Shown here: piece by piece, positions 959-32,420 of the stretch
Numbering within the stretch: the stretch's first letter is position 1
Layout of the letters: each line of letters starts with the position of its first letter
Program-made: the position numbers and the translations under genes
From: Eubacteriales bacterium
Lineage (GTDB): Bacteria > Bacillota > Clostridia > Oscillospirales > CAG-272
Length of the DNA: 64,000 nucleotides
Assembly (NCBI GenBank): GCA_045127235.1
Contig: JBGVPY010000062.1
Coordinates: 992 to 64,991, forward strand
Direction: 5' to 3'
Notes under the pieces: generated by a model
Database searches by the model: none
Seen by the model: the letters and a program-made list of their open reading frames with translations, nothing else
What the model was told of the DNA's origin: nothing

Positions 959-965
959 GGAGAAA

Positions 966-4379: not shown

Positions 4380-6896
4380 ATGAAAAGGAAAATTTTATTT
4401 GCACTTTTCCTTGCGGTATTTTTTACACTTGTATTTGTAATTTCTGCAAATGCAACGGTATATTATTACGAGGAAGGCAACAGCGAAGCTCCAATGTTTC
4501 AGTATGAAACAAAAGTCTCAAATTATGACTCTAAGCATATTTTGATTGATACTTATATTGGTGAATTTCCAAAAGCCGATGCAAACGGAAACGCCCTCAC
4601 TTGGTATGTTACATCAACAACCCAAAGTGGCGGCAATACAATTAAAACCGTAAAAAGCGTTTTAACCACAGATGAAAGATATTTCACAATTTCATCGGAC
4701 GGTGCTTACAGCTATGGCGGAACAGCGGGTACACCTGTTACTCAGTATAATGTTGTATCTGTTAATTTCCCACAAAATGGCGGAATTAAAACATTAAATT
4801 TACAAAATGATGGATACAGGGTAGGCAATATTTATAGCTACGACTATAACTCAACGGAAATTTTGTTTCTCTATCTGCCAAACACCTTGACCGCCTTGAA
4901 TGAAAGAATTGTTCAAAACACAAAGGTTTTAGTGTGCGATATTCCTTTTGAAATTACTGCAAAGGAAATTTCACATGTTGCATTCTATCATGCAAAGAAT
5001 TTAAGAGAGATTAATATTCCAATAACCGTTAAATCAATTAACGGCAAAAACGAAGCTGACGGCTCTGCATTTTTAGGCTGCGAGCAGCTTGTAAGAGTTA
5101 ATTTTCATAAGGACTCTGCGCTTGAATCAATTGGCGCATATGCATTTAACAAGTGCGATAGCCTACGCGAGGTTGTTTTTCCTGATTCACTTAAAGATGT
5201 TGGAGCCTATGCATTTTATTTAACAGGACTTACTCAGTCCCCCTTTACAATGAATTCAAAAGCAACCGTGGGCGATAGTGCATTTGGACAATGTACAAAT
5301 CTTAAGAACTTCATCGTTCCTGCGGGGGTAACTGAATTAAACGCTATGAATATGCTATTTGGTTGCTCAGAAATTCAAAAAATTGAGTTTGCCAACAATT
5401 CTCAGCTTCAAAAAATTTCTGATAACTCCTTCCGCGCCACAAATAACGCATCATTTTCTAAGCTAAAGTATATCATCTTGCCGGATTCTGTTACACATGT
5501 TGGTAATGGGGCTTTCTATAATGTACCGATTGAAACTAATCCATTCGGTGTTGATTCTAGATGCACATACATTGGCCATGCAGCATTTTTAGGTACAAGA
5601 ATTACGGAAGTAAATATTCCTAAGAACGCGCAATTTAATATGGGCGCGGACGGTAAGCTTTCAAAGGAAGGCGTTTTCTCACATTGTTCACTTCTTAGAA
5701 CGGTTAATTTCCGCGAGGATTCTACAACAACCGCACTTCCAAAGTATATGTTCGCTTATTGCTCAAATCTTACTTATGTTAAGATTCCAAATAGCGTTAC
5801 AACAATGTCAATTCGTACCTTTGATAGATGCGTGTCATTGCACACGGTTATTCTTGGCGCAAAGGTTGAGTTTATGAACTGGGGCAGAAATGATTCAGGC
5901 GAGGACCATGCAAGCTTCTTCTATAACTGTCTTAGCTTGAAAAATGTATATTTGCCAAGAACCATTGACATTACAAGAATAGAAAGAAATCAATGCCACT
6001 TCTTTACAACCGCTGATAGCGCTATCGGAGGTACATACAAAAAGGTTGCGTATTTCTTTGATGGCACACTTGAAGAGGCAGAAGCTCTTAAAGCAGCATT
6101 CTCAACACAGGTTACATCTTGCGGCAGAAATGACAGAATTACATCTGCTGAAATTATATCGTTAGCAGCGTTTAATGAAAAGTTCCCGGATAGAACGGTT
6201 GATTACGATAAGAACTATATTGTATATGGTGTTAACACCTGCGACGCGTTCTATAATGGCGTTCATGATGCTACCGATGATGGAAGCTGCACAACAGCGT
6301 TGACCTGCAAAAATTGCCAAATAACCGTTACTCCATCATATGACTCTCACAATTATGAAACCGAAATCAAATATCCAAAGGGATATACACAAAGCGGATA
6401 TATAAGAAATAGCTGCGTAAGATGCAGCTCATACACAGAGGAAGCGCTTGCTCCTTTATTTGAGTGCCTTGGATATTCAACCCCGGAGAGCAATAAAAGC
6501 GGAATTACAATTGGCTTTATAGTAAACAACGAAGCAATAGAAAAATATCAGAGCCTTACAGGCAAAGCCTTAAAGTATGGCGCTTTTGCAGTAGCACAGG
6601 AAAAGCTTGGCACAAACGATATTTTTGGCGAAAACGACACAGTAGTGAACGGTGCTATTACCGCTGAAATCACATCTTATGAATTTTCTTCCTTTGATCT
6701 TAAAATCGTAGGCTTTACTGATGAATACAAGGATGATAAGCTTGCTCTTGGCGCTTACATAATTACAAATAACGGCGAGGCTAACGAATATTCATATCTC
6801 CAGTCAGGCACGCCAAATGAAAACGAAAAATATTGCTTTGTTTCATATAACGATATTATAGGAAAGATTTCAACGAATGAAGAGGTGGCACAATGA
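4380..6896 (+). CDS. P1: secreted BspA-type leucine-rich-repeat protein with Cys-knuckle and shared C-terminal module
   Basis: Signal peptide MKRKILFALFLAVFFTLVFVISANA. Repeated AFxxCxxLxxIxIPxSVxxIGxxAF LRR_5-like units. CxxC pairs, then the module at 6456-6893 that is shared with five paralogs. Confidence 0.85.
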   Translation: MKRKILFALFLAVFFTLVFVISANATVYYYEEGNSEAPMFQYETKVSNYDSKHILIDTYIGEFPKADANGNALTWYVTSTTQSGGNTIKTVKSVLTTDERYFTISSDGAYSYGGTAGTPVTQYNVVSVNFPQNGGIKTLNLQNDGYRVGNIYSYDYNSTEILFLYLPNTLTALNERIVQNTKVLVCDIPFEITAKEISHVAFYHAKNLREINIPITVKSINGKNEADGSAFLGCEQLVRVNFHKDSALESIGAYAFNKCDSLREVVFPDSLKDVGAYAFYLTGLTQSPFTMNSKATVGDSAFGQCTNLKNFIVPAGVTELNAMNMLFGCSEIQKIEFANNSQLQKISDNSFRATNNASFSKLKYIILPDSVTHVGNGAFYNVPIETNPFGVDSRCTYIGHAAFLGTRITEVNIPKNAQFNMGADGKLSKEGVFSHCSLLRTVNFREDSTTTALPKYMFAYCSNLTYVKIPNSVTTMSIRTFDRCVSLHTVILGAKVEFMNWGRNDSGEDHASFFYNCLSLKNVYLPRTIDITRIERNQCHFFTTADSAIGGTYKKVAYFFDGTLEEAEALKAAFSTQVTSCGRNDRITSAEIISLAAFNEKFPDRTVDYDKNYIVYGVNTCDAFYNGVHDATDDGSCTTALTCKNCQITVTPSYDSHNYETEIKYPKGYTQSGYIRNSCVRCSSYTEEALAPLFECLGYSTPESNKSGITIGFIVNNEAIEKYQSLTGKALKYGAFAVAQEKLGTNDIFGENDTVVNGAITAEITSYEFSSFDLKIVGFTDEYKDDKLALGAYIITNNGEANEYSYLQSGTPNENEKYCFVSYNDIIGKISTNEEVAQ

Positions 6897-7042
6897 AATA
6901 CGTAACACCAAAATATGAAAGCATTCTTATAGCAACGAAAGACGTTGTAACCGCTTCAACATCAGCCCAAAAATATGAAGTTGAACAAAACAACGACGGA
7001 AGCGGCAATGTTATAATGAGAGCATTAGACTTATTTAAATAA
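6893..7042 (+). CDS. conserved 49-aa small protein, cassette copy 1 (not in ORF track)
   Basis: MKYVTPKYESILIATKDVVTASTSAQKYEVEQNNDGSGNVIMRALDLFK. Its ATG overlaps the P1 stop (caATGA). SD GAGGTG lies 5 nt upstream inside the P1 tail, and the stop sits 8 nt before the terminator. Four paralogs all have identical length. Confidence 0.75.
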   Translation: MKYVTPKYESILIATKDVVTASTSAQKYEVEQNNDGSGNVIMRALDLFK

Positions 7043-7050
7043 AACATAAA

Positions 7051-7082
7051 CCCGTGCAGATTTCTCTGCACGGGTTTTGTTT
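7051..7082 (+). terminator. rho-independent terminator of cassette 1
   Basis: cccgtgcag/ctgcacggg stem followed by ttttgttt. Confidence 0.8.
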
Positions 7083-7096
7083 ATACAAAAGCGATA

Positions 7097-7888
7097 TTAC
7101 ACCGATACTATTACAAGCTCAACCTTTTCTTTATCGAAGTGCTTTTTTATTTCATCTGAAATTTGATTTTTGTCATCTGTTATGATTGTGTCAAAATCTG
7201 ATATTTTTGCAAAGCGACATATGGAATTTTTGCATATCTTGTTGCTTTCGGCAATTAAAACAGAGGTGCTTGAACGTTCAATCAACTTCTTTGAATATGA
7301 GCATTCATCAAGACTGTACGAGGATACCGCATCAATGGATATTGCTGTGCAGGAAACAAAGGAAACGTCAAAATAATAATCATTTAACCTGTCGGTGGCA
7401 AATGCACCCTTTGAAAAACGGTTTTGAATATCCAATTCTCCGCCAATAAAAATGATGCGACCGGTAATTTCTTCCGTGTTAAATTTATTCAGCAATATGC
7501 TTGCAATTGATATGGAGTTTGTAACGAAGGTAACATTTTTCACTCCGCTAACACTGCTTGCGATTGACTGTATGGAAACTCCGGCATCAAAGGCAACAAC
7601 GCTTCCGTCCTGTATCATAGATGCCGCACGCATTCCGATTGTTAATTTTTGTTGTTGATTTGACTTGATTCTCAACAAATAATCCTCATCCTTGCGGCAA
7701 GAGGGTTTGCTTAAAATAGCGCCGCCACGCACCTTTTTTACTAAATTATCCTTGCAAAGCTTGTTTATATCGCGCCTTATGGTTTCAATGGATACGTCAA
7801 ATTTTTTAGCAATATCCGATATGGAGGCAAAGCCACGCTCCTTGGCAACAGACAGTATGTAATCTTGTCTTTCTTCAAGTCCTATCAT
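7097..7888 (-). CDS. DeoR-family transcriptional regulator
   Basis: N-terminal HTH (ISDIAKKFDVSIETIRRDINKL) plus a C-terminal DeoR sugar-phosphate sensor domain. Divergent from P2. Confidence 0.85.
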   Translation of the reverse strand: MIGLEERQDYILSVAKERGFASISDIAKKFDVSIETIRRDINKLCKDNLVKKVRGGAILSKPSCRKDEDYLLRIKSNQQQKLTIGMRAASMIQDGSVVAFDAGVSIQSIASSVSGVKNVTFVTNSISIASILLNKFNTEEITGRIIFIGGELDIQNRFSKGAFATDRLNDYYFDVSFVSCTAISIDAVSSYSLDECSYSKKLIERSSTSVLIAESNKICKNSICRFAKISDFDTIITDDKNQISDEIKKHFDKEKVELVIVSV

Positions 7889-8235
7889 ATTTCAATCCTC
7901 GTTTTTTATTTAATTATACTATGGCAAAATATTTTTTTCAATAGAATAATGAATAAAATGTTGAATTTTGTGTTGAGTTTTTTGAAAAGTCAACAAAACA
8001 CAACAAATATTCGTTAAAACATAGAAAAAATAAATAAATACTTGAAAATTCTTTTACAATAATTTACAATAAAGTTGTACATGTATGTATATACACTTAA
8101 AAATATCAACTATCAATGTTGAATTTGCAACATCATAATTGATTTGTGAATATAAAACAAAGTTGATTAAATTTGCTTTATGGCATATCTTTAATGCCAA
8201 ATAACATTATAAAATATTTTTTTGGAGGAGAAATT

Positions 8236-11200
8236 ATGAAAAAAACACTTTTAATTCTTGCGTTTGTGCTATCATTGATTTTTGTTTTTTCTATTGTATC
8301 CTTGGCTCAAGAAACGGAAAATACATACTATGTAGTGCAAAGCGAAGAATCAGAGCTTGCAGCATCGCTGCTAGCGGAGGGAAAAAGTATTGTCGGTATT
8401 GACAAGCTTTACTCTTCACCATCAAATGCCATGGCTGAAAATTCCACTTATTTTATCAGTCAATTTGACGGCAAGACACTTAATCTTATTCTTGCCGAGA
8501 ATGTAAGCCATCGCGCAGGAAATGACTCAGGACCAAGGGCAACGGGTATTCGTCTTGACAAGGCGGTTACATTAAACGTGTACTTTAACGGTCATAGCTG
8601 GTGGATTCCCGATGATAATAACTATTCCGGCTTTTTCGTTAACAATCAAAATGCGCATCTTTCTTTAATAGGAAACAGAACCTTAGAAGAGGTTAGCGCA
8701 CCATTTGACCCAAACAGCGTAAGTGCAACGGTCAAATCGCCAAAGGTTGACTATTACGGCGGATACGTTGGACTTTATATTGAAAAAGGTGACGTAACTG
8801 TTAAAAATGCAGTTATTATCGGTCATGATGAGCTTATTTATCAAAGAAATGATTCTGCTTCAGGTACAACCGTTCTTACTCTTGATACTTGTATGGTTAG
8901 AATTAAAAATTCAAAATATGACCCGATTTCTCTTAAATGTGAGGGCAACGGTAGCAGTGCGACCGCCAGTGCAACAATAAGATTTAATCATCTTTACACT
9001 GATGACGTTCAAATCAATAACGTTTTGCCTGACAGTTACATTAATAACAGCGTAATAAAAACATTTTATACAGATAGCTGGCACGCAGATGACAGAATAG
9101 GCAAGGACTATATTTATATTAACAATACCACGATAAATGAATATACGACTTATGGCGACTGTCAACATCCAATTGCTAAAAATTCAACTTTCGGTAAGAT
9201 TAATTTAACGGGAGACACATCAGGCGGTGCTTACGCAACGCTTATAGATAGCACTTATACGGAATTATATCTTGTAAGAAGATATGCAGAACCGAAAAGA
9301 AACGGTATTCTCTATATTGTAACGGAAGCAGATTGCGAAAATGCAGCCACAAGAATAGTATATACCTATGACGATGAAACAAAAGCAAACGTATCAAGCA
9401 TAGATGAGGAATATCAAAAAAACAACCCTGCATTGGGCCATAGCACAAAAGATAAACCTTTGACAGTATCATATACAAGCTTCCTTGAAAAGGGCGACGG
9501 TTTATTTGTATGTGACGTGTGTTCAAAAGAATACGAGGGCGAAGTAAATCCTTTATTTACCTTCCTTGGCTATTCAGTATATGAGGGTGCAGGCGCTTCG
9601 GTTGCCATAGGATACAAAATAGATACAGAAGCATTAAAAATATACGAAGAAGTAACGGAAAAAACACTTAATTACGGCGTATATGCAGTATCAAAGGATA
9701 AAATAGGCGACAGAGATATCTTTGGCGCAGACGGAAAAGCGTCAGAGGGCGTTATCAACGCTGATTTAACAGAATTTAATTTCAGAACAATTGAACTTAA
9801 AATCAAGGGTATTTCAGATGAATACAAAAATTCAAAGCTTGCTATGGGCGTGTACGTTATGGAAAACGATGGAGAAAAAACATCCTATTCATATTTACAA
9901 TATGGCAATATAGCTGAAAATGAAAAATACAGCTTTGCTTCATATAATGAAGTTTTAGAAGCTATGCCACCTGAAATCATTCCGTTTGAGGATATCGAGG
10001 TTGTGGTAGGAGACAAAATATCACTACCAAAAACTGTTTTTGTAAACGGCGTGGAAAAGTCTTTGACATACACTTTTGACAGCTCAAGTATTTCCATTGA
10101 GGACTACGTTCTCACAGGTCTTTCACACGAAAATAATGTAAAGGTAACAGTAAGCGGTAAAGGCATTCAAGGCGAATTTAACGTAACCGTAAGAGATTAC
10201 TCTATTTACAAATACGTAGTAGTAATCGGTGTTGACGGAGCGGGTGCATACTTTGCAAATGCCAATACACCAAACCTTGACAAAATCTTTGCAAACGGAG
10301 CATTAACGTATAACTGTTTAACCTCTAATCCTACAATAAGTGCTCAATGTTGGGGCTCACTCCTTCACGGTGTAACACCTAATCTTCACGGTCTTACAAA
10401 CGATAATGCAGCATCAGGCGCTTATCCAAACGACTCAAGTTACCCAAGCTTCTTCCGTGTAATTCGCGAAAATAACGCAAATGCAGTTCTAGCATCATTT
10501 GCAGGTTGGAATCCAATTAACGTTGGTATAGTAGAGGACGATATCGGCGTTTACAAAAAAGGCGGTATGTCCGACTCTAATTTAACAGCGGAAATTCTTG
10601 CATATCTTGCTCAAAACAATCCGGATGCTATGTTTATTCAATTTGACGAAGCAGATGCAGCAGGCCACTCATCAGGCTACGGCACAGCAGCTCAACTTGC
10701 TAAAATAGCTGAGATAGATGCTTATATCGGTCAAATTTATGATTCATACATGCAAAAAGGAATCCTTAATGAAACATTGTTTATCGTTACTTCTGACCAT
10801 GGCGGAAACGGAACAAATCATGGTGGATTAACAGATACGGAAAAATACGTTATGTTTGCTGCAACAGGCAAGACAGTTGTCAGCGGTACAATAAGCGATA
10901 TGGAAATTCGTGATACTGCTGCTATCGTTCTTCATGCATTAGGCTATGAACAACCTGAAAAATGGTCAGCAAGAGTTCCTTCTAATTTATTTAACGGTAT
11001 TGAAGCACCATTACACCGCCCTGGAACTATGCCTGGCCGTTACCACGAAACAGAAGCAACCCCTGAAAAGGGCAGTCAGGGCTACGTAACCAATTTTGTG
11101 GATAACAAATTAAATACGTATTTGACATTTGACGGAAACGTAACCGATAGCTGCGGTGGAAATACAACTCCACATAATACAATTACATATAAGGATGGAT

Positions 11201-11748
11201 ATTACGGACAGGGCGCAGCACTTAATGGAGGCTACGTAACTCTTGAAGATTTTGATCCGTCCATGGAAAGCTTTACTATGTCCTTCTGGATGAAAGCAAG
11301 CTCTATTTCATCAGACCCGTGTATTATTTCCAATAAAAACTGGGATTCGGGACAAAATACAGGCTTTGCATTAACATTTATAAACAAAAACGGCATTATT
11401 AACGTAAGGTTAAATTACGGTGAAAATAGAAATAAGCGTGCCGATTGCGATTTTGCTCTTCCAAGCGATTACACAAACGGATGGGTGCATATAATAGCCA
11501 TATTTGACCGTGAAAACAATAAGCTTGGATTAAGTGTTGATTTTGCGGACATTAAAACAAGCAATATTCCCGAAAACCTTCAAGGTACTTCTCTTGATGC
11601 CGGTTTGAAAACCAACATCGGTCAAGACGGTAGAGGCACATATAATCGTGCTTTACCTGCAACCATCGATGAATTTATGATTTTCGAGGGCGCATTTACG
11701 CAAGAGGATGTAAATGCACTTATGGAATATTACGGAATGAAAAATTAG
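8236..11748 (+). CDS. P2: secreted multidomain protein with the shared module placed internally, followed by a type I phosphodiesterase (alkaline-phosphatase superfamily) domain and a LamG/ConA-like domain
   Basis: SD GGAGGAG and ATG 8236 give signal peptide MKKTLLILAFVLSLIFVFSIVSLAQE. Module at 9553-9963. Phosphodiesterase motifs VIGVDGAGAYF, PTISAQCWGSLLHGV, FDEADAAGHSSG, TSDHGG. C-terminal Laminin_G_3-like region (SFTMSFWMKA ... IDEFMIFEGAFT). Confidence 0.85.
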   Translation: MKKTLLILAFVLSLIFVFSIVSLAQETENTYYVVQSEESELAASLLAEGKSIVGIDKLYSSPSNAMAENSTYFISQFDGKTLNLILAENVSHRAGNDSGPRATGIRLDKAVTLNVYFNGHSWWIPDDNNYSGFFVNNQNAHLSLIGNRTLEEVSAPFDPNSVSATVKSPKVDYYGGYVGLYIEKGDVTVKNAVIIGHDELIYQRNDSASGTTVLTLDTCMVRIKNSKYDPISLKCEGNGSSATASATIRFNHLYTDDVQINNVLPDSYINNSVIKTFYTDSWHADDRIGKDYIYINNTTINEYTTYGDCQHPIAKNSTFGKINLTGDTSGGAYATLIDSTYTELYLVRRYAEPKRNGILYIVTEADCENAATRIVYTYDDETKANVSSIDEEYQKNNPALGHSTKDKPLTVSYTSFLEKGDGLFVCDVCSKEYEGEVNPLFTFLGYSVYEGAGASVAIGYKIDTEALKIYEEVTEKTLNYGVYAVSKDKIGDRDIFGADGKASEGVINADLTEFNFRTIELKIKGISDEYKNSKLAMGVYVMENDGEKTSYSYLQYGNIAENEKYSFASYNEVLEAMPPEIIPFEDIEVVVGDKISLPKTVFVNGVEKSLTYTFDSSSISIEDYVLTGLSHENNVKVTVSGKGIQGEFNVTVRDYSIYKYVVVIGVDGAGAYFANANTPNLDKIFANGALTYNCLTSNPTISAQCWGSLLHGVTPNLHGLTNDNAASGAYPNDSSYPSFFRVIRENNANAVLASFAGWNPINVGIVEDDIGVYKKGGMSDSNLTAEILAYLAQNNPDAMFIQFDEADAAGHSSGYGTAAQLAKIAEIDAYIGQIYDSYMQKGILNETLFIVTSDHGGNGTNHGGLTDTEKYVMFAATGKTVVSGTISDMEIRDTAAIVLHALGYEQPEKWSARVPSNLFNGIEAPLHRPGTMPGRYHETEATPEKGSQGYVTNFVDNKLNTYLTFDGNVTDSCGGNTTPHNTITYKDGYYGQGAALNGGYVTLEDFDPSMESFTMSFWMKASSISSDPCIISNKNWDSGQNTGFALTFINKNGIINVRLNYGENRNKRADCDFALPSDYTNGWVHIIAIFDRENNKLGLSVDFADIKTSNIPENLQGTSLDAGLKTNIGQDGRGTYNRALPATIDEFMIFEGAFTQEDVNALMEYYGMKN

Positions 11749-11761
11749 TTGAGGTGATATA

Positions 11762-11911
11762 ATGAAATACGTAACGCCAAAATATGAAAATGCAATTATA
11801 GAAACAAAAGATATTATAACCGCCTCAACCAACAAGTTTGAAATCCAAAATGATAATAACATCGAAGGCAAAGGCAATATCATAATGAACGCATTAGACA
11901 TCTTTAAATAA
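11762..11911 (+). CDS. conserved 49-aa small protein, cassette copy 2 (not in ORF track)
   Basis: MKYVTPKYENAIIETKDIITASTNKFEIQNDNNIEGKGNIIMNALDIFK. SD GAGGTG 5 nt upstream, 13 nt after the P2 stop, terminator follows. Confidence 0.75.
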   Translation: MKYVTPKYENAIIETKDIITASTNKFEIQNDNNIEGKGNIIMNALDIFK

Positions 11912-11918
11912 AGTAAAA

Positions 11919-11947
11919 ACCGTGCAGAGAAATCTGCACGGTTTTAT
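11919..11947 (+). terminator. rho-independent terminator of cassette 2
   Basis: accgtgcag/ctgcacggt stem followed by tttat. The stem sequence is related to the cassette 1 terminator. Confidence 0.75.
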
Positions 11948-12028: not shown

Positions 12029-12859
12029 CTAAATTTGATTTTTTCTGTAAACCGAGGGAGAAACGCTAGTATGCTTCTTGAACATTCTGCTGAAGTATAG
12101 TGCATCGTCAATACCACATAATTTAGCAATTTCGGAAATATTATAATCGGTATTAATTAATAAATGAGAGCTTTTGTCTATAATTAACTTAGCGTAATAT
12201 TCTTGAGGAGAAACACCAAAATTTTTTTTGAAAAGCTTAATAAAATAAAATTTGCTTAACCCGCAAAGTCTTGCTAGCTCTTCATTACTACGCCTTATAT
12301 GACATTCGGATTTCATAATTTGAATGGCGTTATGAAGCTTTGATAATTTCTTTCCCTCTTGACTGACAAGCTTCATTATACGGGCGATAAGAGTTATCAG
12401 CATGCCATCCAATAATAATTCCGAAATTTCATCCTCATTTTTCGAGCCACTCCATAAGCTATGGCAGAAATGCTCAAATTCAGGAAATGCTCCTATATGA
12501 TATGAACGCTCTTTAAAAAAGGAAAGCATTTTTTCAACTTCGCTACCGGTAAAAAGAATCCAATAATGTGTTGTAGTTATTCCATCTATGGTGTATATCT
12601 GAGGCTCATTTGGTCTAAATAAGCATATATCTCCACTTGTAAGATTTCGTTTTTTGCCTTGCTCGTGTATAGTGAGAACACCCGATGCAACATAAATGAG
12701 CTGATAGTCAGGTCTACCTTTTTTACGACGTATTGACATTTTTGAGTGATCTGCACAGTATCCAAAATCATTAATATATAAAAATCTATCGGTATCAGTA
12801 TGCTTTTCATTACTTGCTTTTCCGGAATAATAGCATGCTTTTCCTAAATAATTGTACAT
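12029..12859 (-). CDS. AraC-family transcriptional regulator (cupin sensor plus HTH_18)
   Basis: C-terminal double HTH (LARLCGLSKFYFIKLFKKNFGVSPQEY ... IAKLCGIDDALYFSRMFKKHTSVSPSVYR). SD GGAGG. Divergent from the GH2 gene. Confidence 0.85.
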   Translation of the reverse strand: MYNYLGKACYYSGKASNEKHTDTDRFLYINDFGYCADHSKMSIRRKKGRPDYQLIYVASGVLTIHEQGKKRNLTSGDICLFRPNEPQIYTIDGITTTHYWILFTGSEVEKMLSFFKERSYHIGAFPEFEHFCHSLWSGSKNEDEISELLLDGMLITLIARIMKLVSQEGKKLSKLHNAIQIMKSECHIRRSNEELARLCGLSKFYFIKLFKKNFGVSPQEYYAKLIIDKSSHLLINTDYNISEIAKLCGIDDALYFSRMFKKHTSVSPSVYRKNQI

Positions 12860-16699: not shown

Positions 16700-16713
16700 G
16701 CAATGAGGTAAAA

Positions 16714-16863
16714 ATGAAATACATTACCCCAAAATATGAAAATGCAAGCATTTTAGCAAAGGATATTATAACCGCCTCAAAAGGTAAGTTTGAAATCCAA
16801 CACGACCTTAATGAACAGGGCAAGGGCAATATCATAATGAATGCATTAGATATATTTAAATAA
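16714..16863 (+). CDS. conserved 49-aa small protein, cassette copy 3 (not in ORF track)
   Basis: MKYITPKYENASILAKDIITASKGKFEIQHDLNEQGKGNIIMNALDIFK. SD GAGGTA, 14 nt after the P3 stop. Confidence 0.75.
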   Translation: MKYITPKYENASILAKDIITASKGKFEIQHDLNEQGKGNIIMNALDIFK

Positions 16864-16898
16864 TTAAAAGCCGTGTGGAATTTTCCACACGGCTTTTA
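16729..16898 (+). repeat. dispersed near-identical DNA repeat (small ORF plus terminator), partner at 21750-21919
   Basis: Colinear at a constant offset of 5021 nt. By eye there are only about 2 mismatches. Identity stops right after the terminator. Confidence 0.85.
16869..16898 (+). terminator. rho-independent terminator of cassette 3
   Basis: agccgtgtgg/ccacacggct stem followed by tttat. Identical to the cassette 4 terminator. Confidence 0.8.
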
Positions 16899-21718: not shown

Positions 21719-21875
21719 ATAACGAGGTGCAAAAATGAAGTACATTACACCAAAATATGAAAATGCAAGCATTTTAGCAAAGGATATTATAACCGCCTCA
21801 AAGGGTAAGTTTGAAATCCAACATGACCTTAATGAACAGGGCAAGGGCAATATCATAATGAATGCATTAGATATA
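21305..21875 (+). repeat. dispersed high-identity DNA repeat (module 3' part, spacer and small ORF), partner at 26253-26823
   Basis: Colinear at a constant offset of 4948 nt with no indels and scattered, mostly third-position differences. Confidence 0.85.
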
Positions 21876-21884
21876 TTTAAATAA
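21735..21884 (+). CDS. conserved 49-aa small protein, cassette copy 4 (not in ORF track)
   Basis: Protein identical to copy 3. SD GAGGTG, 16 nt after the P4 stop. Confidence 0.75.
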   Translation: MKYITPKYENASILAKDIITASKGKFEIQHDLNEQGKGNIIMNALDIFK

Positions 21885-21889
21885 TTAAA

Positions 21890-21919
21890 AGCCGTGTGGA
21901 ATTTTCCACACGGCTTTTA
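21890..21919 (+). terminator. rho-independent terminator of cassette 4
   Basis: agccgtgtgg/ccacacggct stem followed by tttag. Confidence 0.8.
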
Positions 21920-22038: not shown

Positions 22039-23766
22039 GTGGCTATTTTGAAAATAAATGATGTAGAAAAAATAACAGGACTTTCAAAAAAAGCTATTCG
22101 TTTGTACGAAAGCAACGGATTAGTTACCGTAGCAAGAGATGAAAACGGATATCGAAACTATTCAAATATAAATGTTGATGACCTAAAAGCAATCAAGCTT
22201 TTAAGAACCATAGGTGCTTCTATTTCCGATATTAAGCTTTATATGTTCGGCGTTATTACTAAAGATGAGCTGATAAATAAGCGCAAATCAGAGATATTAA
22301 AGGAAAGCGGCAAAAACTCTGAGAAATATCATATTTGCGAAAGCATTTTAAGCAATAACTCGGCGGATGATTTAATCCATTTTGACTTTGATGAAAGTAA
22401 TGAGGCAGAAATAAAAAATTATGGCACGCTTATTGTAGGCATAGATATTGGAACAACAACAGTAAGTGCCTCTATATATGATATTGATAACAAGGAGCAA
22501 ATTGAAGCATATTCGCTTGAACATAACTCCGGCGTAGATATAGAAGAATTTTCAGAGCAGGATGTGTCTGCTATTTTAGGAAAAGCAAAAAAGCTTCTTT
22601 TCCATATACTTGATACATATAAGGGAGTCGTATCAATTGGCATAACAGGCCAAATGCACGGAATTGTGTATTTAGATAATAAACTTAATCCCGTGTCAAA
22701 TCTTATAAATTGGCAGGATAAAAGAGCGGATAAAGTATTAAATAATGGCAAAACAACATGTCAAATGATATATGATATTACTGAAGAGCATATTTCAACA
22801 GGCTATGGTATTGCAACGCATTATTATAATATGTTAAATAACATAGTTCCTAAAAACGCCACATCTGTATGTAGCATAATGGACTTATTCGCTATACAAA
22901 TTTGTGGTATTGAAAAACCGGTAACCCATACCTCAGTAGCTGTAAGCTTAGGAATTTTTGATGTACAAAAATCGGAATTTATGTATGATAAGCTGTTATC
23001 ATTAGGAATTGAAAGGAGCTTTTTACCAAGCGTAACTGATAAAAGTATAATAATAGGTAAATGCAGAGATATCCCTGTTAGTATTCCAATAGGCGATAAT
23101 CAAGCAAGCTTTTTAGGGTCAGTTGACAATAACAATGATACAATACTTGTAAATATGGGTACAGGCTCACAGGTAAGCATGGTAGGCGAGTATCAAAACA
23201 CATCAGGAGATATTGAAACACGCCCCTTTATTGAGGGCAAGTATCTTGTGTGTGGCTCTGCATTATGCGGAGGACTGGCATATCAAATGCTTGAGGAATT
23301 TTTTAGAAGCTATACACAAAGCTGCAAAATGAGCGATATGCCTCAGTATAAAATAATGAACCAAATCGCCAAGGATGGATACCAAAAAGGCGAAAGAGGA
23401 CTTTTAGTTGATACTTCATTTTGCGGTAAAAGAAGCAACCCGCATTATCGTGGCTCCATTTTAGATATAGACAAGGATAAATTTACCCCTTCTAATCTTA
23501 TTTTAGGAGTGTTAAGAGGTATGTGTGCCGAGCTTTACGAATTATACGAGCAATTTTCTAAAAAATGCACTCATATAATAGCTTCGGGCGGAGCGGTAAA
23601 GAAAAACGAGGTTTTACAGCTGCTAATCAAGGACATTTTTTCAATGGAAGTAACGGGAAATACATTCAAAGAAGAAGCAGCAACAGGCGCGGCGCTGTTT
23701 TCGGCGCTTGCTCTTGGAAAAATAGACTATAAAAACGGCTTTTCCGACTACATAAGAAAAAGGTAA
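22039..23766 (+). CDS. MerR-family HTH fused to an FGGY-type carbohydrate kinase
   Basis: N-terminus INDVEKITGLSKKAIRLYESNGLV...GYRNYS (MerR). From about aa 130: VGIDIGTTTVSASIYD, GITGQMHGIVYLD, GDNQASFLGS (sugar kinase fold). The start may be TTG 22048, which sits 8 nt after AAGGGGG. Confidence 0.7.
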   Translation: MAILKINDVEKITGLSKKAIRLYESNGLVTVARDENGYRNYSNINVDDLKAIKLLRTIGASISDIKLYMFGVITKDELINKRKSEILKESGKNSEKYHICESILSNNSADDLIHFDFDESNEAEIKNYGTLIVGIDIGTTTVSASIYDIDNKEQIEAYSLEHNSGVDIEEFSEQDVSAILGKAKKLLFHILDTYKGVVSIGITGQMHGIVYLDNKLNPVSNLINWQDKRADKVLNNGKTTCQMIYDITEEHISTGYGIATHYYNMLNNIVPKNATSVCSIMDLFAIQICGIEKPVTHTSVAVSLGIFDVQKSEFMYDKLLSLGIERSFLPSVTDKSIIIGKCRDIPVSIPIGDNQASFLGSVDNNNDTILVNMGTGSQVSMVGEYQNTSGDIETRPFIEGKYLVCGSALCGGLAYQMLEEFFRSYTQSCKMSDMPQYKIMNQIAKDGYQKGERGLLVDTSFCGKRSNPHYRGSILDIDKDKFTPSNLILGVLRGMCAELYELYEQFSKKCTHIIASGGAVKKNEVLQLLIKDIFSMEVTGNTFKEEAATGAALFSALALGKIDYKNGFSDYIRKR

Positions 23767-23775
23767 AATTTATTT

Positions 23776-25076: not shown

Positions 25077-26666
25077 ATGAAGAAGAAACTATTTTTAACA
25101 GCTGTTATGGTGTTTATTTTTGTTATGATGCTTGCTTTTGCGGTATCCGCTGATTCAGTTCATAACGAAAACACAGTTGATTACAACTCAAAGGTTACAC
25201 TTAATGACGGGACTGTGCTTCCGATATACGATGAAAATAAGGATGCGCTTATTTGGTATATCGACGGAAAAGACGAAAGCGGAAACCCAATTTATTCATC
25301 CGCCCCTACCGACAAGGTTGCTTATTGGTACACAGAGAGTTGGAATGAGGTGACGGGCTTTGATGTAGTGCTTGAAAACGGAACGAAAATTGAAAGAAAT
25401 AACGTGGTAGTAGTTAACATGATGGATGACGATGTTGTAAAGAACGCCGGCCCTGGTACTAAGTATTACGGAGAACCTGTTAAAGATTTCAAAAATATGA
25501 TTAATTCTAGAAAAAATCTTGAATACTGCTTTTTAAGACTTGATACAAGTACTATCAACAATGGTACCTTTGCAGGATGTCCTAAATTGAAGTACATAAA
25601 TTTAGAAAGTTTGACAAATCTTAAAAGAATGGCACAACACAGTCAATTTTCCGGATGTACAAGTTTGTTTGACGGACAGGTGCTCGACCTTACAAAAACT
25701 CAATTATACGAATTTGAGGGCAACGAAACATTTAAAGGCGTTCCGGTAAAAGGAATAAAATTCCCGGAAACAATGAAAAAGATAGGTTCGGGAAGCACCT
25801 TTGCTAACTGCTCAAAACTTGAATTTATTTCGGTAGGTAACAAGTTAACGACAATGGGTGGCGAAGCATTTAGTGGTTGCACATCACTCAAAGCAATTTA
25901 TTACGTTGGCACACAAGACGAATTAAATGCTTCACCAATCAATAGAGTAGTTACTGATGCTACAATAAAATCATACAATGAATACAAATCACTTACCGAT
26001 ATAAGCGGAGTGTATGTAGTATATAATTACAGTAGATGTATTGCTTTTAATAACGGTGTTCACGGCGAGGCGATTTTAGCAAATGCTTGTGTAGGCAATT
26101 GCTTGGTATGTGGTGATGCAATGGTTAACCATAACGAAGTAAAAAATCTTTCCGTAACAATTACATATAAAAACTACGGCATTAACGGCGAAAAAGTAAC
26201 TGTTTGTAACAACAAAGATTGTGGATACAAAGAAACAAAAGTTGCTCCCGCACTTATTGTTTGTCGTGGTTACTCTGCACCTGAAAATGGCAGAGGTGGA
26301 ATTGTAATCGGCTTTGATATAAACAGCGAAGCAATCAAAGATTACGAAACAACAACAGGCAAAACCTTAAAATACGGTGCTTTTGCAGGAGCACAGGAAA
26401 AGCTTGGCACAAGCGATATTTTTAGCGAAAACGGCACAGTAGCGAACTACGCTATTGCCGCTGAAATCGCATCTTATGAATTTTCTTCCTTTGAGCTTAA
26501 AATCACAGGCTTTACAGATGAATACAAGGATACAAAGCTTGCTCTTGGCGCTTATGTAATAGCAATCGATAAGGACATCACCGAATATTCATATATTCAA
26601 CATGGCGAGCCTAAACAAAACGAAAAGTATGTATTTACTTCATATGATGAGGTTGTAAATTCATAA
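25077..26666 (+). CDS. P5: secreted BspA-type LRR protein with Cys-knuckle and shared C-terminal module
   Basis: Signal peptide MKKKLFLTAVMVFIFVMMLAFAVSA, LRR_5-like units, CVGNCLVC ... CNNKDC, module at 26253-26663. Confidence 0.85.
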   Translation: MKKKLFLTAVMVFIFVMMLAFAVSADSVHNENTVDYNSKVTLNDGTVLPIYDENKDALIWYIDGKDESGNPIYSSAPTDKVAYWYTESWNEVTGFDVVLENGTKIERNNVVVVNMMDDDVVKNAGPGTKYYGEPVKDFKNMINSRKNLEYCFLRLDTSTINNGTFAGCPKLKYINLESLTNLKRMAQHSQFSGCTSLFDGQVLDLTKTQLYEFEGNETFKGVPVKGIKFPETMKKIGSGSTFANCSKLEFISVGNKLTTMGGEAFSGCTSLKAIYYVGTQDELNASPINRVVTDATIKSYNEYKSLTDISGVYVVYNYSRCIAFNNGVHGEAILANACVGNCLVCGDAMVNHNEVKNLSVTITYKNYGINGEKVTVCNNKDCGYKETKVAPALIVCRGYSAPENGRGGIVIGFDINSEAIKDYETTTGKTLKYGAFAGAQEKLGTSDIFSENGTVANYAIAAEIASYEFSSFELKITGFTDEYKDTKLALGAYVIAIDKDITEYSYIQHGEPKQNEKYVFTSYDEVVNS

Positions 26667-26682
26667 ATAATGAGGTGTAAAA

Positions 26683-26832
26683 ATGAAGTACATTACACCA
26701 AAATATGAAAATGCAAGCATTTTAGCAAAGGATATTATAACCGCCTCAAAGGGTAAGTTCGAAATCCAACACGACCCTAATGAACAGGGCAAGGGCAATA
26801 TCATAATGAATGCTTTGAATATTTTCGGATAA
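26683..26832 (+). CDS. conserved 49-aa small protein, cassette copy 5, with an altered C-terminal end (not in ORF track)
   Basis: MKYITPKYENASILAKDIITASKGKFEIQHDPNEQGKGNIIMNALNIFG. SD GAGGTG. The last residues and the downstream DNA diverge from copies 3 and 4, and the usual terminator is missing. Confidence 0.7.
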   Translation: MKYITPKYENASILAKDIITASKGKFEIQHDPNEQGKGNIIMNALNIFG

Positions 26833-27045: not shown

Positions 27046-27056
27046 TCTGTTTTTTA

Positions 27057-27308: not shown

Positions 27309-27333
27309 ATAGTGCATAATTAAGAGATCTTGG

Positions 27334-28392: not shown

Positions 28393-28612
28393 ATTATTAC
28401 CTCGCAAGTGTGAATGTAATTAAAGTATAACATAGTAAATTTTCTTTTTCAATACTCAAAAATCAAAAAAATCTAATTGAAAAAAGCAGTGGGTTTTTAT
28501 ATCAAAAATACACTCAACAGTTGTAAAAATAACAATTTAAAGTTTGTTGCCTGTTGTATAACATGTGTGATATAATATATGTGGTATGATAAAATCAAAA
28601 ACAGGAGATATT

Positions 28613-30193
28613 ATGACTCTCGGAAAAACAATACATAAAATCAGAACCGAAGCGAAGCTCACACAAGAGCAATTTTCTCAAATATTTGGCATATCGCAGC
28701 AATCGGTTCAAAAATGGGAAAGCGATGCTTCAACTCCCGATCTTGATAAAATTATTATGATTTCAAAGTATTTTGATGTTTCTCTTGATGCTCTTATTCT
28801 TGGAAATGACAATAGAATCGTAGATGAAATGAAGAAAACAAAAGTAATAAAGCCACACTATAAAAACATACATGACTGGGAATTTTATTCCTCAAACCTT
28901 TTGCTTGAATATCAAGAGTCTATGGATGAAGGATTAGATATAGAAATATACAATGATGTTTTTTCTTCTATATCAAGGCTTCCAAAGGGAGAAATAAAAA
29001 AGAAGCTTGGAGATGTTTTATTTGAGGCTATCACATCCGCTAATCAAAGAGATGGATACCCATATATTGAGCCCTCGGAGCTTGAACAAATAAAAGGACT
29101 AAGAAAAAAATATAACACTCAATTAGCATATAATTTCGCTGATATGGAAAACAAGATTCACGGCGCGTGGATGGGGCGAATTTGTGGTTGTATGCTCGGT
29201 AAGCCTCTTGAGGGAATTCGCACAGATGAGTTAATTCCATTTCTTAAGGAAACGAATAATTATCCAATGCGCAGATATGTTTTAAAAAGCGATTTAACGG
29301 ACAAGATTATTGAAAAATATAAGTTCGGCTTTGCAGGGCAAACATATGCTGATGAAATTAACGGTATGCCCATAGATGATGATACTAACTATGTTGTGCT
29401 TGCGCAAGAAATTATAGATAAGCACGGAAGAGATTTCACATCATACGATGTTGCAAGTGCATGGCTAAAATATCAAAGCAAGGAATATTATTTTTCAGCC
29501 GAGCGCGTTGCTTATCTTAATTTTGTAAAGGGCTTTGACCCGCCTGAATCAGCAGCTTATAAAAATCCTTACCGTGAGTGGATTGGAGCGCAGATACGAG
29601 GAGATTATTTTGGATATATCAATCCAAAAAATCCTGAGCTTGCAGCAGAAATGGCATGGAGAGATGCTTCAATTTCTCACACCAAAAACGGTATCTACGG
29701 AGAAATGTTTGTCAGTGCTATGTTAGCCGTGGCTTCTTGCACTGACAATATTGAAGACGTCATTCTTTGTGGACTTGCTGAAATTCCACACACCTCAAGG
29801 TTGTATGAGGATATAATGGCGGTTGTTGAAGCATACAAAAACGGAGTCTCTCAAAATGATTGCTTTGATATGATTCATAAGAAATATGATGAATACACCT
29901 CACATGGCTGGTGTCATACAATATCAAATGCAATGATTGTTGTGGCATCGCTATTATACGGGAATGGTGATTTTGCAAAATCCATCTGTATGGCGGTAGA
30001 AACAGGCTTTGATACTGACTGTAACGGAGCAACCGTTGGCTCTGTGCTTGGTATGATTATCGGCTTTGATAAAATCCCGGAATATTGGAAAAAGCCAATC
30101 AATGATACACTATACACCTCGCTTTTCGGCATTGAAGCGGTGAAAATTTCTGAGCGAGCCAAATTAACAATGAAGCATATTGCTAATAATTAA
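28613..30193 (+). CDS. XRE-family HTH fused to an ADP-ribosylglycohydrolase (ARH) fold domain
   Basis: N-terminus LGKTIHKIRTEAKLTQEQFSQIFGISQQSVQKWESDASTPDLDKIIMISKYFDVSLDALI. ARH motifs GAWMGRICGCMLGKPLEG, DDDTNY, GFDTDCNGATVGSVLG. ATG 28613 follows AGGAGA. Confidence 0.75.
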   Translation: MTLGKTIHKIRTEAKLTQEQFSQIFGISQQSVQKWESDASTPDLDKIIMISKYFDVSLDALILGNDNRIVDEMKKTKVIKPHYKNIHDWEFYSSNLLLEYQESMDEGLDIEIYNDVFSSISRLPKGEIKKKLGDVLFEAITSANQRDGYPYIEPSELEQIKGLRKKYNTQLAYNFADMENKIHGAWMGRICGCMLGKPLEGIRTDELIPFLKETNNYPMRRYVLKSDLTDKIIEKYKFGFAGQTYADEINGMPIDDDTNYVVLAQEIIDKHGRDFTSYDVASAWLKYQSKEYYFSAERVAYLNFVKGFDPPESAAYKNPYREWIGAQIRGDYFGYINPKNPELAAEMAWRDASISHTKNGIYGEMFVSAMLAVASCTDNIEDVILCGLAEIPHTSRLYEDIMAVVEAYKNGVSQNDCFDMIHKKYDEYTSHGWCHTISNAMIVVASLLYGNGDFAKSICMAVETGFDTDCNGATVGSVLGMIIGFDKIPEYWKKPINDTLYTSLFGIEAVKISERAKLTMKHIANN

Positions 30194-30225
30194 ACTGAAA
30201 ATACAAAGAAATAAGGAGAAAAACG

Positions 30226-32388
30226 ATGAAAAAGAAAATTCTTTTAATTGCTATGATGGTATCAATACTTGCTTGTTTTTTTGCTCTTTCTGTTAGTGCT
30301 GAAACAATCACTTACGATGGGCAAGAAATTGAGCTAGTTAACAATCTTGGCGACCCATCATGGTACACAGGCACAACAGCATCTAAAATTACAGACAAGG
30401 AGTCTATCGTTATTTTAAAGGATGCTAACGGCAGCTTGACCGCTTATCCGTCATATTATGTTTTTAGATACTTAATCGAGGGCTCAACTGTACGTGTAAA
30501 TTGGGCTGACCAAAAGGGAGTTGATTATTCTTTCATAAATGAAAATGATGGTAAGAATTATCAAGCAGGAAGCCTATACTATGTGGAGCTTCCATATGGA
30601 ATAACTCTTTTGACAAATGCTAATCTTTGGGGCGATGGTAAAAAAGAGCCTAATGTAGTTGAGTTTGTTTTTCCCGACTCTGTTACTCTAATTCAAAATA
30701 ATGCTTTCACTCAAGTAAGCGCGTGCAAAAAGGTTACTATGTCGAAAAATGTTAAGACAATAGAAATGTGGTCGTTTTACAATTCAGCAAATCTTGAAAC
30801 CGTTGTTTTCCCAAAGGATTGTGCTGTCAAGAGCATAGACAAGGGTACTTTTAGTGGATGCACAAATTTAGCAAATATAAATCTTGAAAGCTGCACAAGC
30901 TTAAAAGCACTTGGCGATGGAGCATTTCAAGGCTGTAGATCTATTGACAGACTTGCATTGCCTGATTCTTTAGAGACAATAGGTTTTCAAGCACTTTATG
31001 ATTTAGGAGAAATAGAGCTTGCAAGCGACTATTTACCAAAGAGCTTAAAAACAGTTGGCCAATACTTTTTAAATAGCTGTAAGCTGAAAAATAACATATT
31101 ATATTTTCCACAAGGCTTTACATCTCTTACTGCAAGATATTGCTTTGCAGGTAGCTTTGAGCCTGAAACATCGTTAACGCTTGTTTTCCTTGGCAAAATG
31201 ACAAGCGTAAATTTATCAGATGCTTCCCTTACGACATTTTTAGACAAATGCTCACAAAAGCCGATAAAATTAGTGTTTGCGCAAAACGAACATAGCGACC
31301 TTTCTGGACCAATTGTTTCTACTGTTAATTATAACGGACAAAAGGGATTTATCGCTATCTCAAAGGACGGTAGCTCTCTTTATACAAATCAAGAGGGAAC
31401 ACTAAAAGTAAGCTTTGAAAATACTAACTATTACAACCTTACAGGCATTGGAGCTGATGCAAACGGCAACATTATTCATAGTGTTGGAAATTCTCCAACA
31501 GAAATAATTTTCTGTGGAGGAGATAGCGTGGAAATAAGCTATACCATAAGATGCAATTACACAGATAAGGGTTGGTACAGATTCCATACAACAAGCGAAG
31601 TGTATGATATGAGCACACACGAGATAGATGGCGTTCATTATAACGACAGAGTATATCAAAAGGGTAACTGTGGTTATGATGAAAAAACTACAAATACATG
31701 TGTAATTTGTAAGCTTCAAAGCGTGGTAGTAGGCGAAAAATCAACAGGCGACCATACCTATGAGGACGATTTTAACTGTGAAACTGCACTTGCCTGTGAT
31801 GTTTGCCTAAAAACACTTAAGGAAGCACTTGCACACGATATTAAGACAACGATTTTGTACGAAAAAGGTTATACTAGAGAGGGCTTAAAAACAGTTGCGT
31901 GTCAAAATGAAGGATGTAATCATAGCAACGGAGCGGAAAAGACAGAAGCGCTCTTTACCTGCCTTGGCTATTCAGCACCGGAAGATGGCAGAGGCGGAAT
32001 TGCAGTAGGCTATACTATAAACAATGAAGCTATCAGAGAATATGAAAAAGCAACAGGCAAAGCTTTAAAATACGGAGTATTTGCAGTGTTAAAGGATAAG
32101 CTCATCACAGATGATCTCTTCAATGCAAAGGGAGAAGTGGCAAACGGAGCAATCAGCGCAGAAATTTCAGGCAACAATTATGCTGCGGTTGAGCTAAAAA
32201 TAACCGGTTTTACAGATGACTATAAGGATACCAAGCTTGCAATGGGCGTATATGTGGCTGTAACAGATGGCGAAACAGCCGAGTATTCCTATCTCCAGTC
32301 CGGTACACCTAATGAAAATGAAAAATACTCATTTATTTCATATAATGATATTGTAGGAAATCCTGCAACAGATAAAGAGGAATCATAA
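30226..32388 (+). CDS. P6: secreted BspA-type LRR protein with an extended Cys-rich region and the shared C-terminal module
   Basis: Signal peptide MKKKILLIAMMVSILACFFALSVSA, LRR_5-like units, multiple CxxC pairs, module at 31951-32385. Starts only 32 nt after the XRE-ARH gene. Confidence 0.85.
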   Translation: MKKKILLIAMMVSILACFFALSVSAETITYDGQEIELVNNLGDPSWYTGTTASKITDKESIVILKDANGSLTAYPSYYVFRYLIEGSTVRVNWADQKGVDYSFINENDGKNYQAGSLYYVELPYGITLLTNANLWGDGKKEPNVVEFVFPDSVTLIQNNAFTQVSACKKVTMSKNVKTIEMWSFYNSANLETVVFPKDCAVKSIDKGTFSGCTNLANINLESCTSLKALGDGAFQGCRSIDRLALPDSLETIGFQALYDLGEIELASDYLPKSLKTVGQYFLNSCKLKNNILYFPQGFTSLTARYCFAGSFEPETSLTLVFLGKMTSVNLSDASLTTFLDKCSQKPIKLVFAQNEHSDLSGPIVSTVNYNGQKGFIAISKDGSSLYTNQEGTLKVSFENTNYYNLTGIGADANGNIIHSVGNSPTEIIFCGGDSVEISYTIRCNYTDKGWYRFHTTSEVYDMSTHEIDGVHYNDRVYQKGNCGYDEKTTNTCVICKLQSVVVGEKSTGDHTYEDDFNCETALACDVCLKTLKEALAHDIKTTILYEKGYTREGLKTVACQNEGCNHSNGAEKTEALFTCLGYSAPEDGRGGIAVGYTINNEAIREYEKATGKALKYGVFAVLKDKLITDDLFNAKGEVANGAISAEISGNNYAAVELKITGFTDDYKDTKLAMGVYVAVTDGETAEYSYLQSGTPNENEKYSFISYNDIVGNPATDKEES

Positions 32389-32420
32389 TGAATGCTTTTG
32401 ATATTTTCAGAACAAAATAA
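32382..32420 (+). pseudogene. truncated remnant of the 49-aa small-protein gene (last ~12 codons only)
   Basis: atc ata atg aat gct ttt gat att ttc aga aca aaa taa encodes IIMNAFDIFRTK, against IIMNALDIFK in the intact copies. Homology starts inside the P6 stop region, and codons 1-39 and the SD are absent. Confidence 0.65.

Follow-up and report, generated by a model that had tools for sequence, protein, structure and literature searches.

A two-gene 3′ cassette of gut Clostridia joins a previously undescribed beta-sandwich domain of exported proteins to a linked small gene

What do leucine-rich repeat proteins and phosphoesterases of a single gut bacterium have in common, and why should a gene of barely fifty codons follow so many of them? 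The question is raised by a locus on contig JBGVPY010000062.1 of a Eubacteriales bacterium (GCA_045127235.1), of which we analysed a stretch of 64,000 nucleotides (nt), referred to here as the window; all positions are given in window numbering. Six genes on the plus strand, A to F, encode proteins with typical Sec signal peptides, all of them present as given in a preliminary description of this DNA, and each contains one copy of the same module of about 140 amino acids (aa). We conclude that this arrangement is a genuine, previously undescribed two-gene cassette, which unites a new domain with a new microprotein family within a narrow lineage of gut Clostridia. The cassette occupies the 3′ end of its host gene in uncultured Clostridia of animal guts, and consists of a Cys/His knuckle and the module, a translationally coupled gene for a protein of 47-51 aa, and a bidirectional terminator. 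In kind, it comes closest to the known C-terminal domains for surface anchoring or sorting, but it differs from them in having an unusual and strictly linked small partner.

Within the window, a hidden Markov model (HMM) built from the six copies of the module detected exactly six modules with E-values of 1e-67 to 1e-77, at 6444-6863, 9541-9960, 16274-16696, 21293-21715, 26244-26663 and 31939-32358. These boundaries agree to about 12 nt with those proposed earlier, and 46 columns are invariant in the alignment of the six copies. The conserved region reaches further upstream than had first been described, to take in a segment rich in Cys and His, whose knuckles are of the CxxC or Cx4C form (C-x7-H ... 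C-x2-C ... H ... C-x2/4-C, after which comes the Cys of the module itself). The small open reading frame (ORF) of 49 codons, searched for with an HMM of its own, is present in exactly five copies, as had been claimed (E-values 1e-25 to 1e-29), with starts at -4 (an ATGA overlap), 13, 14, 16 and 16 nt past the upstream stop; each has a GAGGT(G) 5-8 nt ahead of its ATG. The terminators described after four of the small ORFs could be recovered as strong hairpins of 13-15 base pairs (bp) with T-runs, within about 10 nt, and since these hairpins carry flanking A and T runs, we interpret them as bidirectional. The count of six cassettes, on the other hand, needed revision. There are six modules, but gene F is trailed by a remnant of the small ORF and by no intact copy, and the window thus contains five intact cassettes and one that has decayed.

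Beyond this locus, the module proves to be a previously undescribed and unannotated family, a beta-sandwich domain of about 140 aa. No Pfam or NCBIfam model matched it, even at permissive thresholds, which agrees with the failure of the preliminary description to place it in any named anchoring or sorting domain; profile searches returned no significant sequence match in the PDB for either the module or the peptide encoded by the small ORF. We found no description of the domain or of the peptide in the full-text literature, and the proteins of the family are named solely 'hypothetical protein' in their source records. An exhaustive HMMER search of 1.84 billion representatives retrieved 911 module clusters (at 50% identity) at E<=1e-10, a number that rises to 1429 at E<=1e-3; this search, which had been suggested at the outset, shows a module that is common in herbivore-gut metagenomes, with at least 1429 clusters. 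A scan of 185,579 species genomes, seeded by a pattern, found 73 module loci in 15 metagenome-assembled genomes (MAGs), and single MAGs contain 11-15 of them. The 15 host records, from the guts of goat, deer and other animals, are without exception Clostridia, Eubacteriales or Oscillospiraceae MAGs, and the window likewise comes from a metagenome bin of this kind. Of 107 full-length representatives, 94 have an N-terminus resembling a signal peptide. The passengers of 70 representatives comprise LRR_5 (52), Phosphodiest/LamG (3), Metallophos (3), GDPD (1) and GDSL lipase (1), and a family-model scan of the same 70 found no other anchor domain and no domain of a carbohydrate-active enzyme (CAZyme). 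The module is grafted onto many Sec-exported passengers, mainly leucine-rich repeat (LRR) proteins of the BspA type, together with esterases that act on nucleotides, phosphodiesters and lipids.

The small ORF is likewise a real gene, and its product belongs to an unannotated family of microproteins. The peptide family, too, is common in herbivore-gut metagenomes, with at least 431 clusters, and nearly all of the 120 listed are 47-51 aa long. M1, K2, Y3, P6, D17, S22, E27, G36, G38 and F48 are invariant. The median ratio of nonsynonymous to synonymous substitution rates (dN/dS) is 0.25 over 68 pairs with dS >0.2, which indicates purifying selection on the peptide. A ribosome-binding site (RBS) was found for every copy, and in most copies the start overlaps the upstream stop as ATGA. 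In these genes the upstream protein ends in ...(D/E)EEVTQ*, and this recurrent tail results from translation of GAAGAGGTGACACAATGA, the very nucleotides that form the RBS and start codon of the peptide. Because the tail codons double as RBS and start, the bimodal length of the tail after the module, 0-6 versus 9-10 aa, is readily explained.

Could the small ORF be something other than a separate gene? It does not appear to be a duplicated fragment of the module (hhalign probability 1.2%). Nor is it the product of a fusion or frameshift, as none of 234 proteins joins module and peptide, the spacers vary in length and frame, and each copy has its own RBS. Hydrophobic ORFs do lie on the minus strand over all five small ORFs of the window (6856-7071, 11653-11901, 16686-16835, 21713-21856 and 26661-26804). 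The antisense frame is open in 20 of 40 copies, against a sense frame open in all, the copies having been chosen for an intact sense ORF; with only half of them open, we reject coding on that strand, and the antisense ORFs are probably a by-product of the sense sequence.

The association between the two genes, proposed from this single locus, holds elsewhere in the direction from peptide to module, and in that direction it withstands the refuting condition set out in the preliminary description. Across about 100 loci, the gene directly upstream of the small ORF carries the module in 57/57 cases, and this count covers loci that were retrieved via the peptide alone and have LRR or GDPD passengers. 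The single case that seems to depart from this pattern follows a B-type gene, of which the locus is too short to include the module. The B-type genes keep the small ORF although their module sits 1.8 kb upstream, and gene B of the window, with an internal module, is likewise followed by the small ORF past its end.

What might such a cassette do? In the reading that we prefer, and to which we would give a probability of about 40%, the module is a lineage-specific surface-retention domain that has spread as a 3′ cassette by gene conversion, together with a coupled but dispensable accessory peptide of the cytoplasm. We infer display or anchoring from architecture: a signal peptide, a domain near the C-terminus, the nature of the passengers, the lack of another anchor, and the copy number. 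In LRR adhesins and in surface nucleotidases or phosphodiesterases, the corresponding slot is filled by LPXTG, SLH or the C-terminal domains known from type IX secretion systems (T9SS), and the module would occupy the same place. As the module is constant while the passengers vary, and no other anchor is present, we read it as a shared handle. The beta-sandwich would keep exported proteins at the cell surface, possibly by binding non-covalently to a shared component of the envelope, for instance a surface protein or a glycopolymer of the wall. The peptide would arise in the cytoplasm by translation of the shared mRNA, right after the module, and could serve as a dispensable accessory to the module pre-proteins, perhaps by maintaining the domain that is synthesised last in a state fit for export. 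Alternatively, it could report on the expression of the cassette. The loss of the small ORF by most paralogues suggests that the peptide probably acts in trans.

Several observations weigh against this interpretation. The module is strongly acidic, with an isoelectric point of 4.3-4.7, whereas anchors known to bind anionic wall polymers are basic. Phages often borrow the wall-binding domains of their hosts, yet we found no relative of the module in IMG/VR or among GenBank phages; a borrowed lysin domain can therefore be set aside, and the phage collections searched lend no support to wall binding. The module is internal in B-type proteins. No homology joins it to the envelope. As for the peptide, the converse of the linkage count is far lower: of the 71 module genes that have 200 nt or more of downstream sequence, 27 (38%) are followed by the small ORF, as against the 57/57 small ORFs that follow modules. 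On the module tree its presence changes at least 13 times, compared with 22.8 changes expected from shuffles, and its distribution is thus clustered. One species-level MAG, RGIG4287, has at least ten module genes with enough downstream sequence and no small ORF at any of the loci sampled; this genome is a natural 'knock-out' for comparison (its loci are L013, L023, L028, L031, L039-L041, L047, L051, L052, L063 and L067). Within the window, peptides b and c are 80% identical while modules B and C share about 45%, and such incongruent similarities argue against tight co-evolution in cis.

The module genes that have no intact peptide gene bear on how the pair should be viewed. Remnants of the small ORF were seen after 4-5 of 45 such genes, and no alternative conserved ORF was seen downstream of them. 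The peptide has no signal peptide, transmembrane segment or recognisable leader, and a peptide with no export signal has no known route to an exported module outside the cell, which is a further point against an obligate pair. Of the dedicated two-gene system put forward in the preliminary description, the unit is real and extends beyond one locus, but the obligate partner-binding pair that it implied is weakened. A more ambitious proposal is a two-component, substrate-specific chaperone-anchor pathway atop Sec. Coupled translation would supply the peptide in step with each module; by adding a strand to the C-terminal domain as soon as that is made, the peptide would pilot or gate the export and attachment of a whole set of adhesins and scavenging enzymes. 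We regard this as quite unlikely; a two-component system of this kind would, if the proposal were correct, be without precedent in monoderm bacteria.

Could the module instead bind glycans? In this alternative it would be a binder of external dietary or host glycans, akin to a lectin or carbohydrate-binding module (CBM), and the proteins would be released or held in some other way. The predicted structure of the module alone, another check suggested at the outset, is a confident beta-sandwich, with a predicted local distance difference test score (pLDDT) of 92, a predicted template modelling (TM) score of 0.85, seven strands, one helix of 11 residues and a short C-terminal helix. When this model was compared with PDB and BFVD using Foldseek, only generic sandwiches of the immunoglobulin (Ig), fibronectin type III or CBM-like kind were found, with TM <=0.5; the best structural E-values were 0.009-0.015, and the best TM-scores about 0.4-0.5. 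The weak best neighbours are associated with carbohydrates (a Bacteroides DUF3823 protein, CBM21 and a GH2 Ig-like domain), the cassettes adjoin sugar-responsive regulators (DeoR, AraC, MerR) and cytoplasmic glycoside hydrolases, gene F lies between paralogues of a pair of genes for an ADP-ribosylglycohydrolase and an MGH1-like glycosidase, and the module may be internal, as in B. These points would suit a glycan binder. Yet the fold matches lie below a useful threshold (TM<0.5, E>=0.009), and the likeness to CBM21 (TM 0.35) and DUF3823 (TM 0.39) is weak, with E>=0.015. None of the 70 representatives has a CAZyme passenger, the occurrence of one domain on dozens of unrelated LRR binders and phosphoesterases suits a common address better than a common substrate, and the peptide would be left with no role. 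Glycan binding of this kind is, in our view, unlikely.

Known C-terminal sorting domains suggest another possibility, namely that the module is a sorting signal for a dedicated machine comparable to the T9SS, with the peptide as its cytoplasmic pilot. Pfam and NCBIfam contain models of T9SS C-terminal domains (of the Por_Secre_tail and TIGR04183 type), and these too are among the models that the module fails to match. In 226/229 proteins the module is followed by no more than a stretch of 0-13 aa, and the peptide is strictly tied to module genes, both of which would be expected of a sorting signal with a pilot. Moreover, the BspA LRR class of passengers uses the T9SS C-terminal domain in Bacteroidota, as stated in two published sources (PMC5445135, PMC4175972). 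The remaining evidence points the other way. The 3/229 exceptions are B-type orthologues, in which about 595 aa separate the module from the C-terminus; the host MAGs are clostridial; all proteins of the window have ordinary Sec signal peptides; and no conserved machinery gene recurs in about 100 neighbourhoods. Thus, a dedicated sorting machine appears very unlikely.

The peptide could, in principle, act independently of the module, as the precursor of an exported or modified peptide (a pheromone, or a product resembling a ribosomally synthesised and post-translationally modified peptide, RiPP) that rides on the transcripts of surface proteins. Its N-terminal 22 residues are its best conserved part, and several diverged C-terminal types coexist within one genome. 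In lasso peptides the leader motif is YxxPxL...Tx, and the core starts with G/A/S/C and has Asp/Glu at 7-9. The pattern Y3-x-x-P6-x-[Y/I/L]8 ... T20-A-S22, which small ORF a encodes within 6893-6960 and the other copies at equivalent positions, resembles this motif, but no model or maturase gene supports the likeness. Neither Pfam nor NCBIfam, RiPP precursor models included, matched the peptide even at E<=5-10, and no maturase or peptidase-ABC exporter was found in any neighbourhood examined. The acidic residues of copies b-e fall at core positions 6 and 10, against 7-9 in a lasso ring, and so, although Y3, P6, T20 and S22 are invariant or nearly so, the misplaced acceptor and the absence of a cyclase or RiPP recognition element gene nearby led us to reject a lasso precursor. 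Double-glycine leaders are cleaved at GG/GA/GS, show hydrophobic residues at positions -4, -7, -12 and -15, and are encoded next to a C39-ABC transporter. The invariant G-x-G of the peptide follows D/N/K; no double-glycine site has the required hydrophobic spacing other than in the SSG|Q subtype, and there is no adjacent ABC transporter. This candidate was rejected as well. A secreted peptide would also leave the 57/57 linkage and the ATGA coupling with no rationale, and we see only a slim chance that the small ORF encodes one. The peptide alone gave no confident predicted fold (pLDDT 54).

How has the cassette come to stand behind such different genes? Over a tract of about 650 nt, which opens some 20 codons ahead of the module and closes with the small ORF, genes D and E have 86-98% identity; outside it they share 20-35%, and the boundaries of homology are abrupt. 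A tract so alike between flanks so unlike implies that module, peptide and terminator move as a unit, or are homogenised, among unrelated genes. Comparison of the copies thus indicates that the paralogues are kept alike by duplication and gene conversion. A metagenome contig of 606 nt (P0004) has an N-terminal module half nearly identical to that of window A (two substitutions) and a C-terminal half equal to that of window D; it is either a natural recombinant of paralogous cassettes or an assembly chimera.

If the 3′ segment spreads in this way, then the two parts might have no joint function at all, and the small ORF might be a mere passenger on the DNA. The abrupt boundaries, the near-identical D/E and c/d tracts, and the frequent loss of the ORF, with remnants past F and at L025 and L049, are all compatible with such hitch-hiking. 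However, the dN/dS of 0.25 holds across species; start codon, RBS and length are conserved in the 431 clusters; the ORF has been kept after B-type genes despite the 1.8 kb to the module; and the antisense frame is open in half of the copies, as against a sense frame open in all of them (picked for that property). The signal of selection on the ORF largely refutes the hitch-hiking explanation, which we consider barely tenable.

Other known routes of surface attachment were considered and rejected. The proteins are not sortase substrates, as their C-termini (...YGEIMNA, ...YDEVVNS, ...NEEVAQ) have no LPXTG motif, no helix and no Gram_pos_anchor match; the earlier statement that no C-terminal hydrophobic helix is present holds for the C-termini that were read. 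SLH, CWB2, choline-binding, GW, LysM and SH3b domains were absent from the six proteins (E<=0.01), from 56 modules (E<=1) and from the 70 representatives. A cohesin-dockerin pair found no Pfam match, and there is no cohesin among the top 50 structural neighbours of the module. Compared with the F-hand consensus of dockerins, the peptide loop N-N-D-G-S-G-N-V has no acidic ligand at position 12, and copies c-e have N-E-Q-G-K-G-N-I in its place; a dockerin or EF-hand peptide was rejected as well.

The closest parallels are of architecture. Like the T9SS C-terminal domain (Por_Secre_tail; Tannerella BspA), the module is a conserved, predicted beta-sandwich, mostly near the C-terminus, of many unrelated secreted proteins, BspA-type LRR proteins included; it has many copies per genome and would serve as a shared address. 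Unlike it, the module has no sequence match and no convincing structural match to that domain, occurs in Clostridia, is longer (about 140 aa plus the Cys/His knuckle), may be internal, has no known machinery, and belongs to genes with a linked small gene, which T9SS substrates are not known to have. The wall anchors of the SLH, CWB2, GW, choline-binding, LysM and SH3b families resemble it in that one domain occurs on diverse Sec-exported adhesins and hydrolytic enzymes, and in retention at the surface with no membrane helix or LPXTG, a property that the module may share. In contrast to them, the module is single, non-repeated and strongly acidic, their Pfam families were not detected, and it was not seen in phage lysins. 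Adhesins with internalin- or BspA-type LRRs offer the same order of signal peptide, LRR, spacer and C-terminal element, in large paralogous families clustered in the genome, but here the putative retention element is new, is found on phosphoesterases too, and is followed by a dedicated small ORF. Finally, the peptide may be compared with small dedicated chaperones or partners encoded beside their substrates, for example the class I chaperones of type III secretion systems and the small partners of LXG toxins in type VII secretion systems. Like these it is small and acidic, is predicted to be cytoplasmic and not to fold stably alone, and would be transcribed and translated together with the exported protein that it serves. 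In our case, however, the substrates carry ordinary Sec signal peptides, and the peptide, at half the size, has no homology to those partners and is dispensable for most paralogues.

The hosts are uncultured Clostridia that are common in the hindguts of ruminants and other herbivores, and their genomes contain a dozen or more module genes each. Knowing how these proteins are displayed would explain the surface organisation of a whole lineage, both its LRR adhesins and its enzymes for scavenging phosphate or nucleotides. The module is a clear candidate to found a Pfam family of its own, and may represent a new mechanism of surface retention in Gram-positive bacteria. The small ORF offers a rare example of a conserved microprotein whose genomic partner is perfectly specific. 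Should peptide and module bind each other, they could be used as a compact tag-and-binder tool.

The individual genes, all on the plus strand, share a common plan, and the earlier passenger annotations agree with Pfam: LRR_5 (PF13306) in A, C, E and F, with bit scores of 157, 113, 79 and 129 against a cutoff of 27.7, Phosphodiest and Laminin_G_3 in B, and Metallophos in D. Gene A (4380-6896) encodes a signal peptide, a BspA-type LRR region, a Cys/His-rich segment (about 6240-6443) and the module (6444-6863). Its tail of 10 aa, ...NEEVAQ, encodes the RBS of the plus-strand small ORF a (49 aa, 6893-7042), whose ATG overlaps the stop of A as ATGA; the bidirectional hairpin terminator that follows (13 bp stem, 7048-7077) is common to a convergent DeoR gene. 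Gene B (8236-11748) most plausibly starts at ATG 8236, within an ORF that opens at TTG-8173, and encodes a signal peptide, an N-terminal domain with no family match, a CxxC knuckle (about 9430-9540), the module (9541-9960), a type I phosphodiesterase domain (Phosphodiest in Pfam) and Laminin_G_3. Small ORF b (49 aa, plus strand, 11762-11911) begins 13 nt past the stop of B, with the RBS GAGGTG, and precedes a cassette-type hairpin terminator of 13 bp (11916-11945).

In gene C (14888-16699), the signal peptide and LRR_5 region are followed by a Cys/His-rich segment (about 16070-16273) and the module (16274-16696); small ORF c (49 aa, plus strand) lies at 16714-16863 and a cassette-type hairpin terminator of 15 bp at 16865-16898. 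The passenger of gene D (17861-21718) is a calcineurin-like metallophosphoesterase with five beta-sandwich-like repeats, which were read by eye; its order is signal peptide, repeats, Metallophos, CxxC knuckle (about 21194-21292) and module (21293-21715). Between the repeat domains of D, a Pro-Thr linker, (PDT/PVT)n, at 18752-18792 gives rise to a false terminator-like hairpin on the minus strand. Small ORF d (49 aa, plus strand, 21735-21884) encodes a protein identical to that of c, at 97% nucleotide identity, and the 15 bp cassette-type hairpin terminator behind it (21886-21919) has the same sequence as the one after c. Gene E (25077-26666) has a signal peptide, LRR_5, a Cys/His-rich segment (about 26037-26240) and the module (26244-26663), and small ORF e (49 aa, plus strand, 26683-26832) has no cassette-type terminator after it. 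Gene F (30226-32388) encodes a signal peptide, LRR_5, two Cys/His-rich units (about 31669-31938), the module (31939-32358) and the tail ...ATDKEES. The plus-strand remnant at 32386-32420 matches the last ~27 nt or so of ORF e at 93% identity and is also present in the orthologous MAG locus L025; loss of the first ~38 codons of the small ORF joined its remainder to the end of F.

A regulator of the type associated with sugar metabolism lies beside every cassette: DeoR at 7097-7888, AraC at 12029-12859, DeoR at 16973-17713, a MerR-type helix-turn-helix (HTH) domain fused to an FGGY kinase at 22039-23766, and HTH_3 fused to an ADP-ribosylglycohydrolase at 28586-30193. AraC neighbours were found again in the metagenome loci L085, L087 and L088. 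Near the cassettes there are also GH2, GH32, DUF2961 and MGH1-like enzymes with no signal peptide. Genes for an ADP-ribosylglycohydrolase and an MGH1-like glycosidase are adjacent at 54117-57350. The paralogues of this pair, with 29% and 42% identity, lie at 28586-30193 and 32570-34201 and are split by cassette F, as though a module gene had landed inside a duplicated pair for sugar utilisation. Elsewhere in the window, a stand-alone toxin gene of the PemK/MazF family lies at 36623-37063, with no obvious antitoxin in the Pfam pass. Directly upstream of cassette A, four plus-strand genes at 20-4191 encode a coiled-coil protein that ends in a NucA/NucB DNase domain, a member of DUF2625, a transglutaminase-like protein and a multi-pass membrane protein, rich in Gly and Asn, with no family match; as a group they look like a polymorphic-toxin/immunity neighbourhood.

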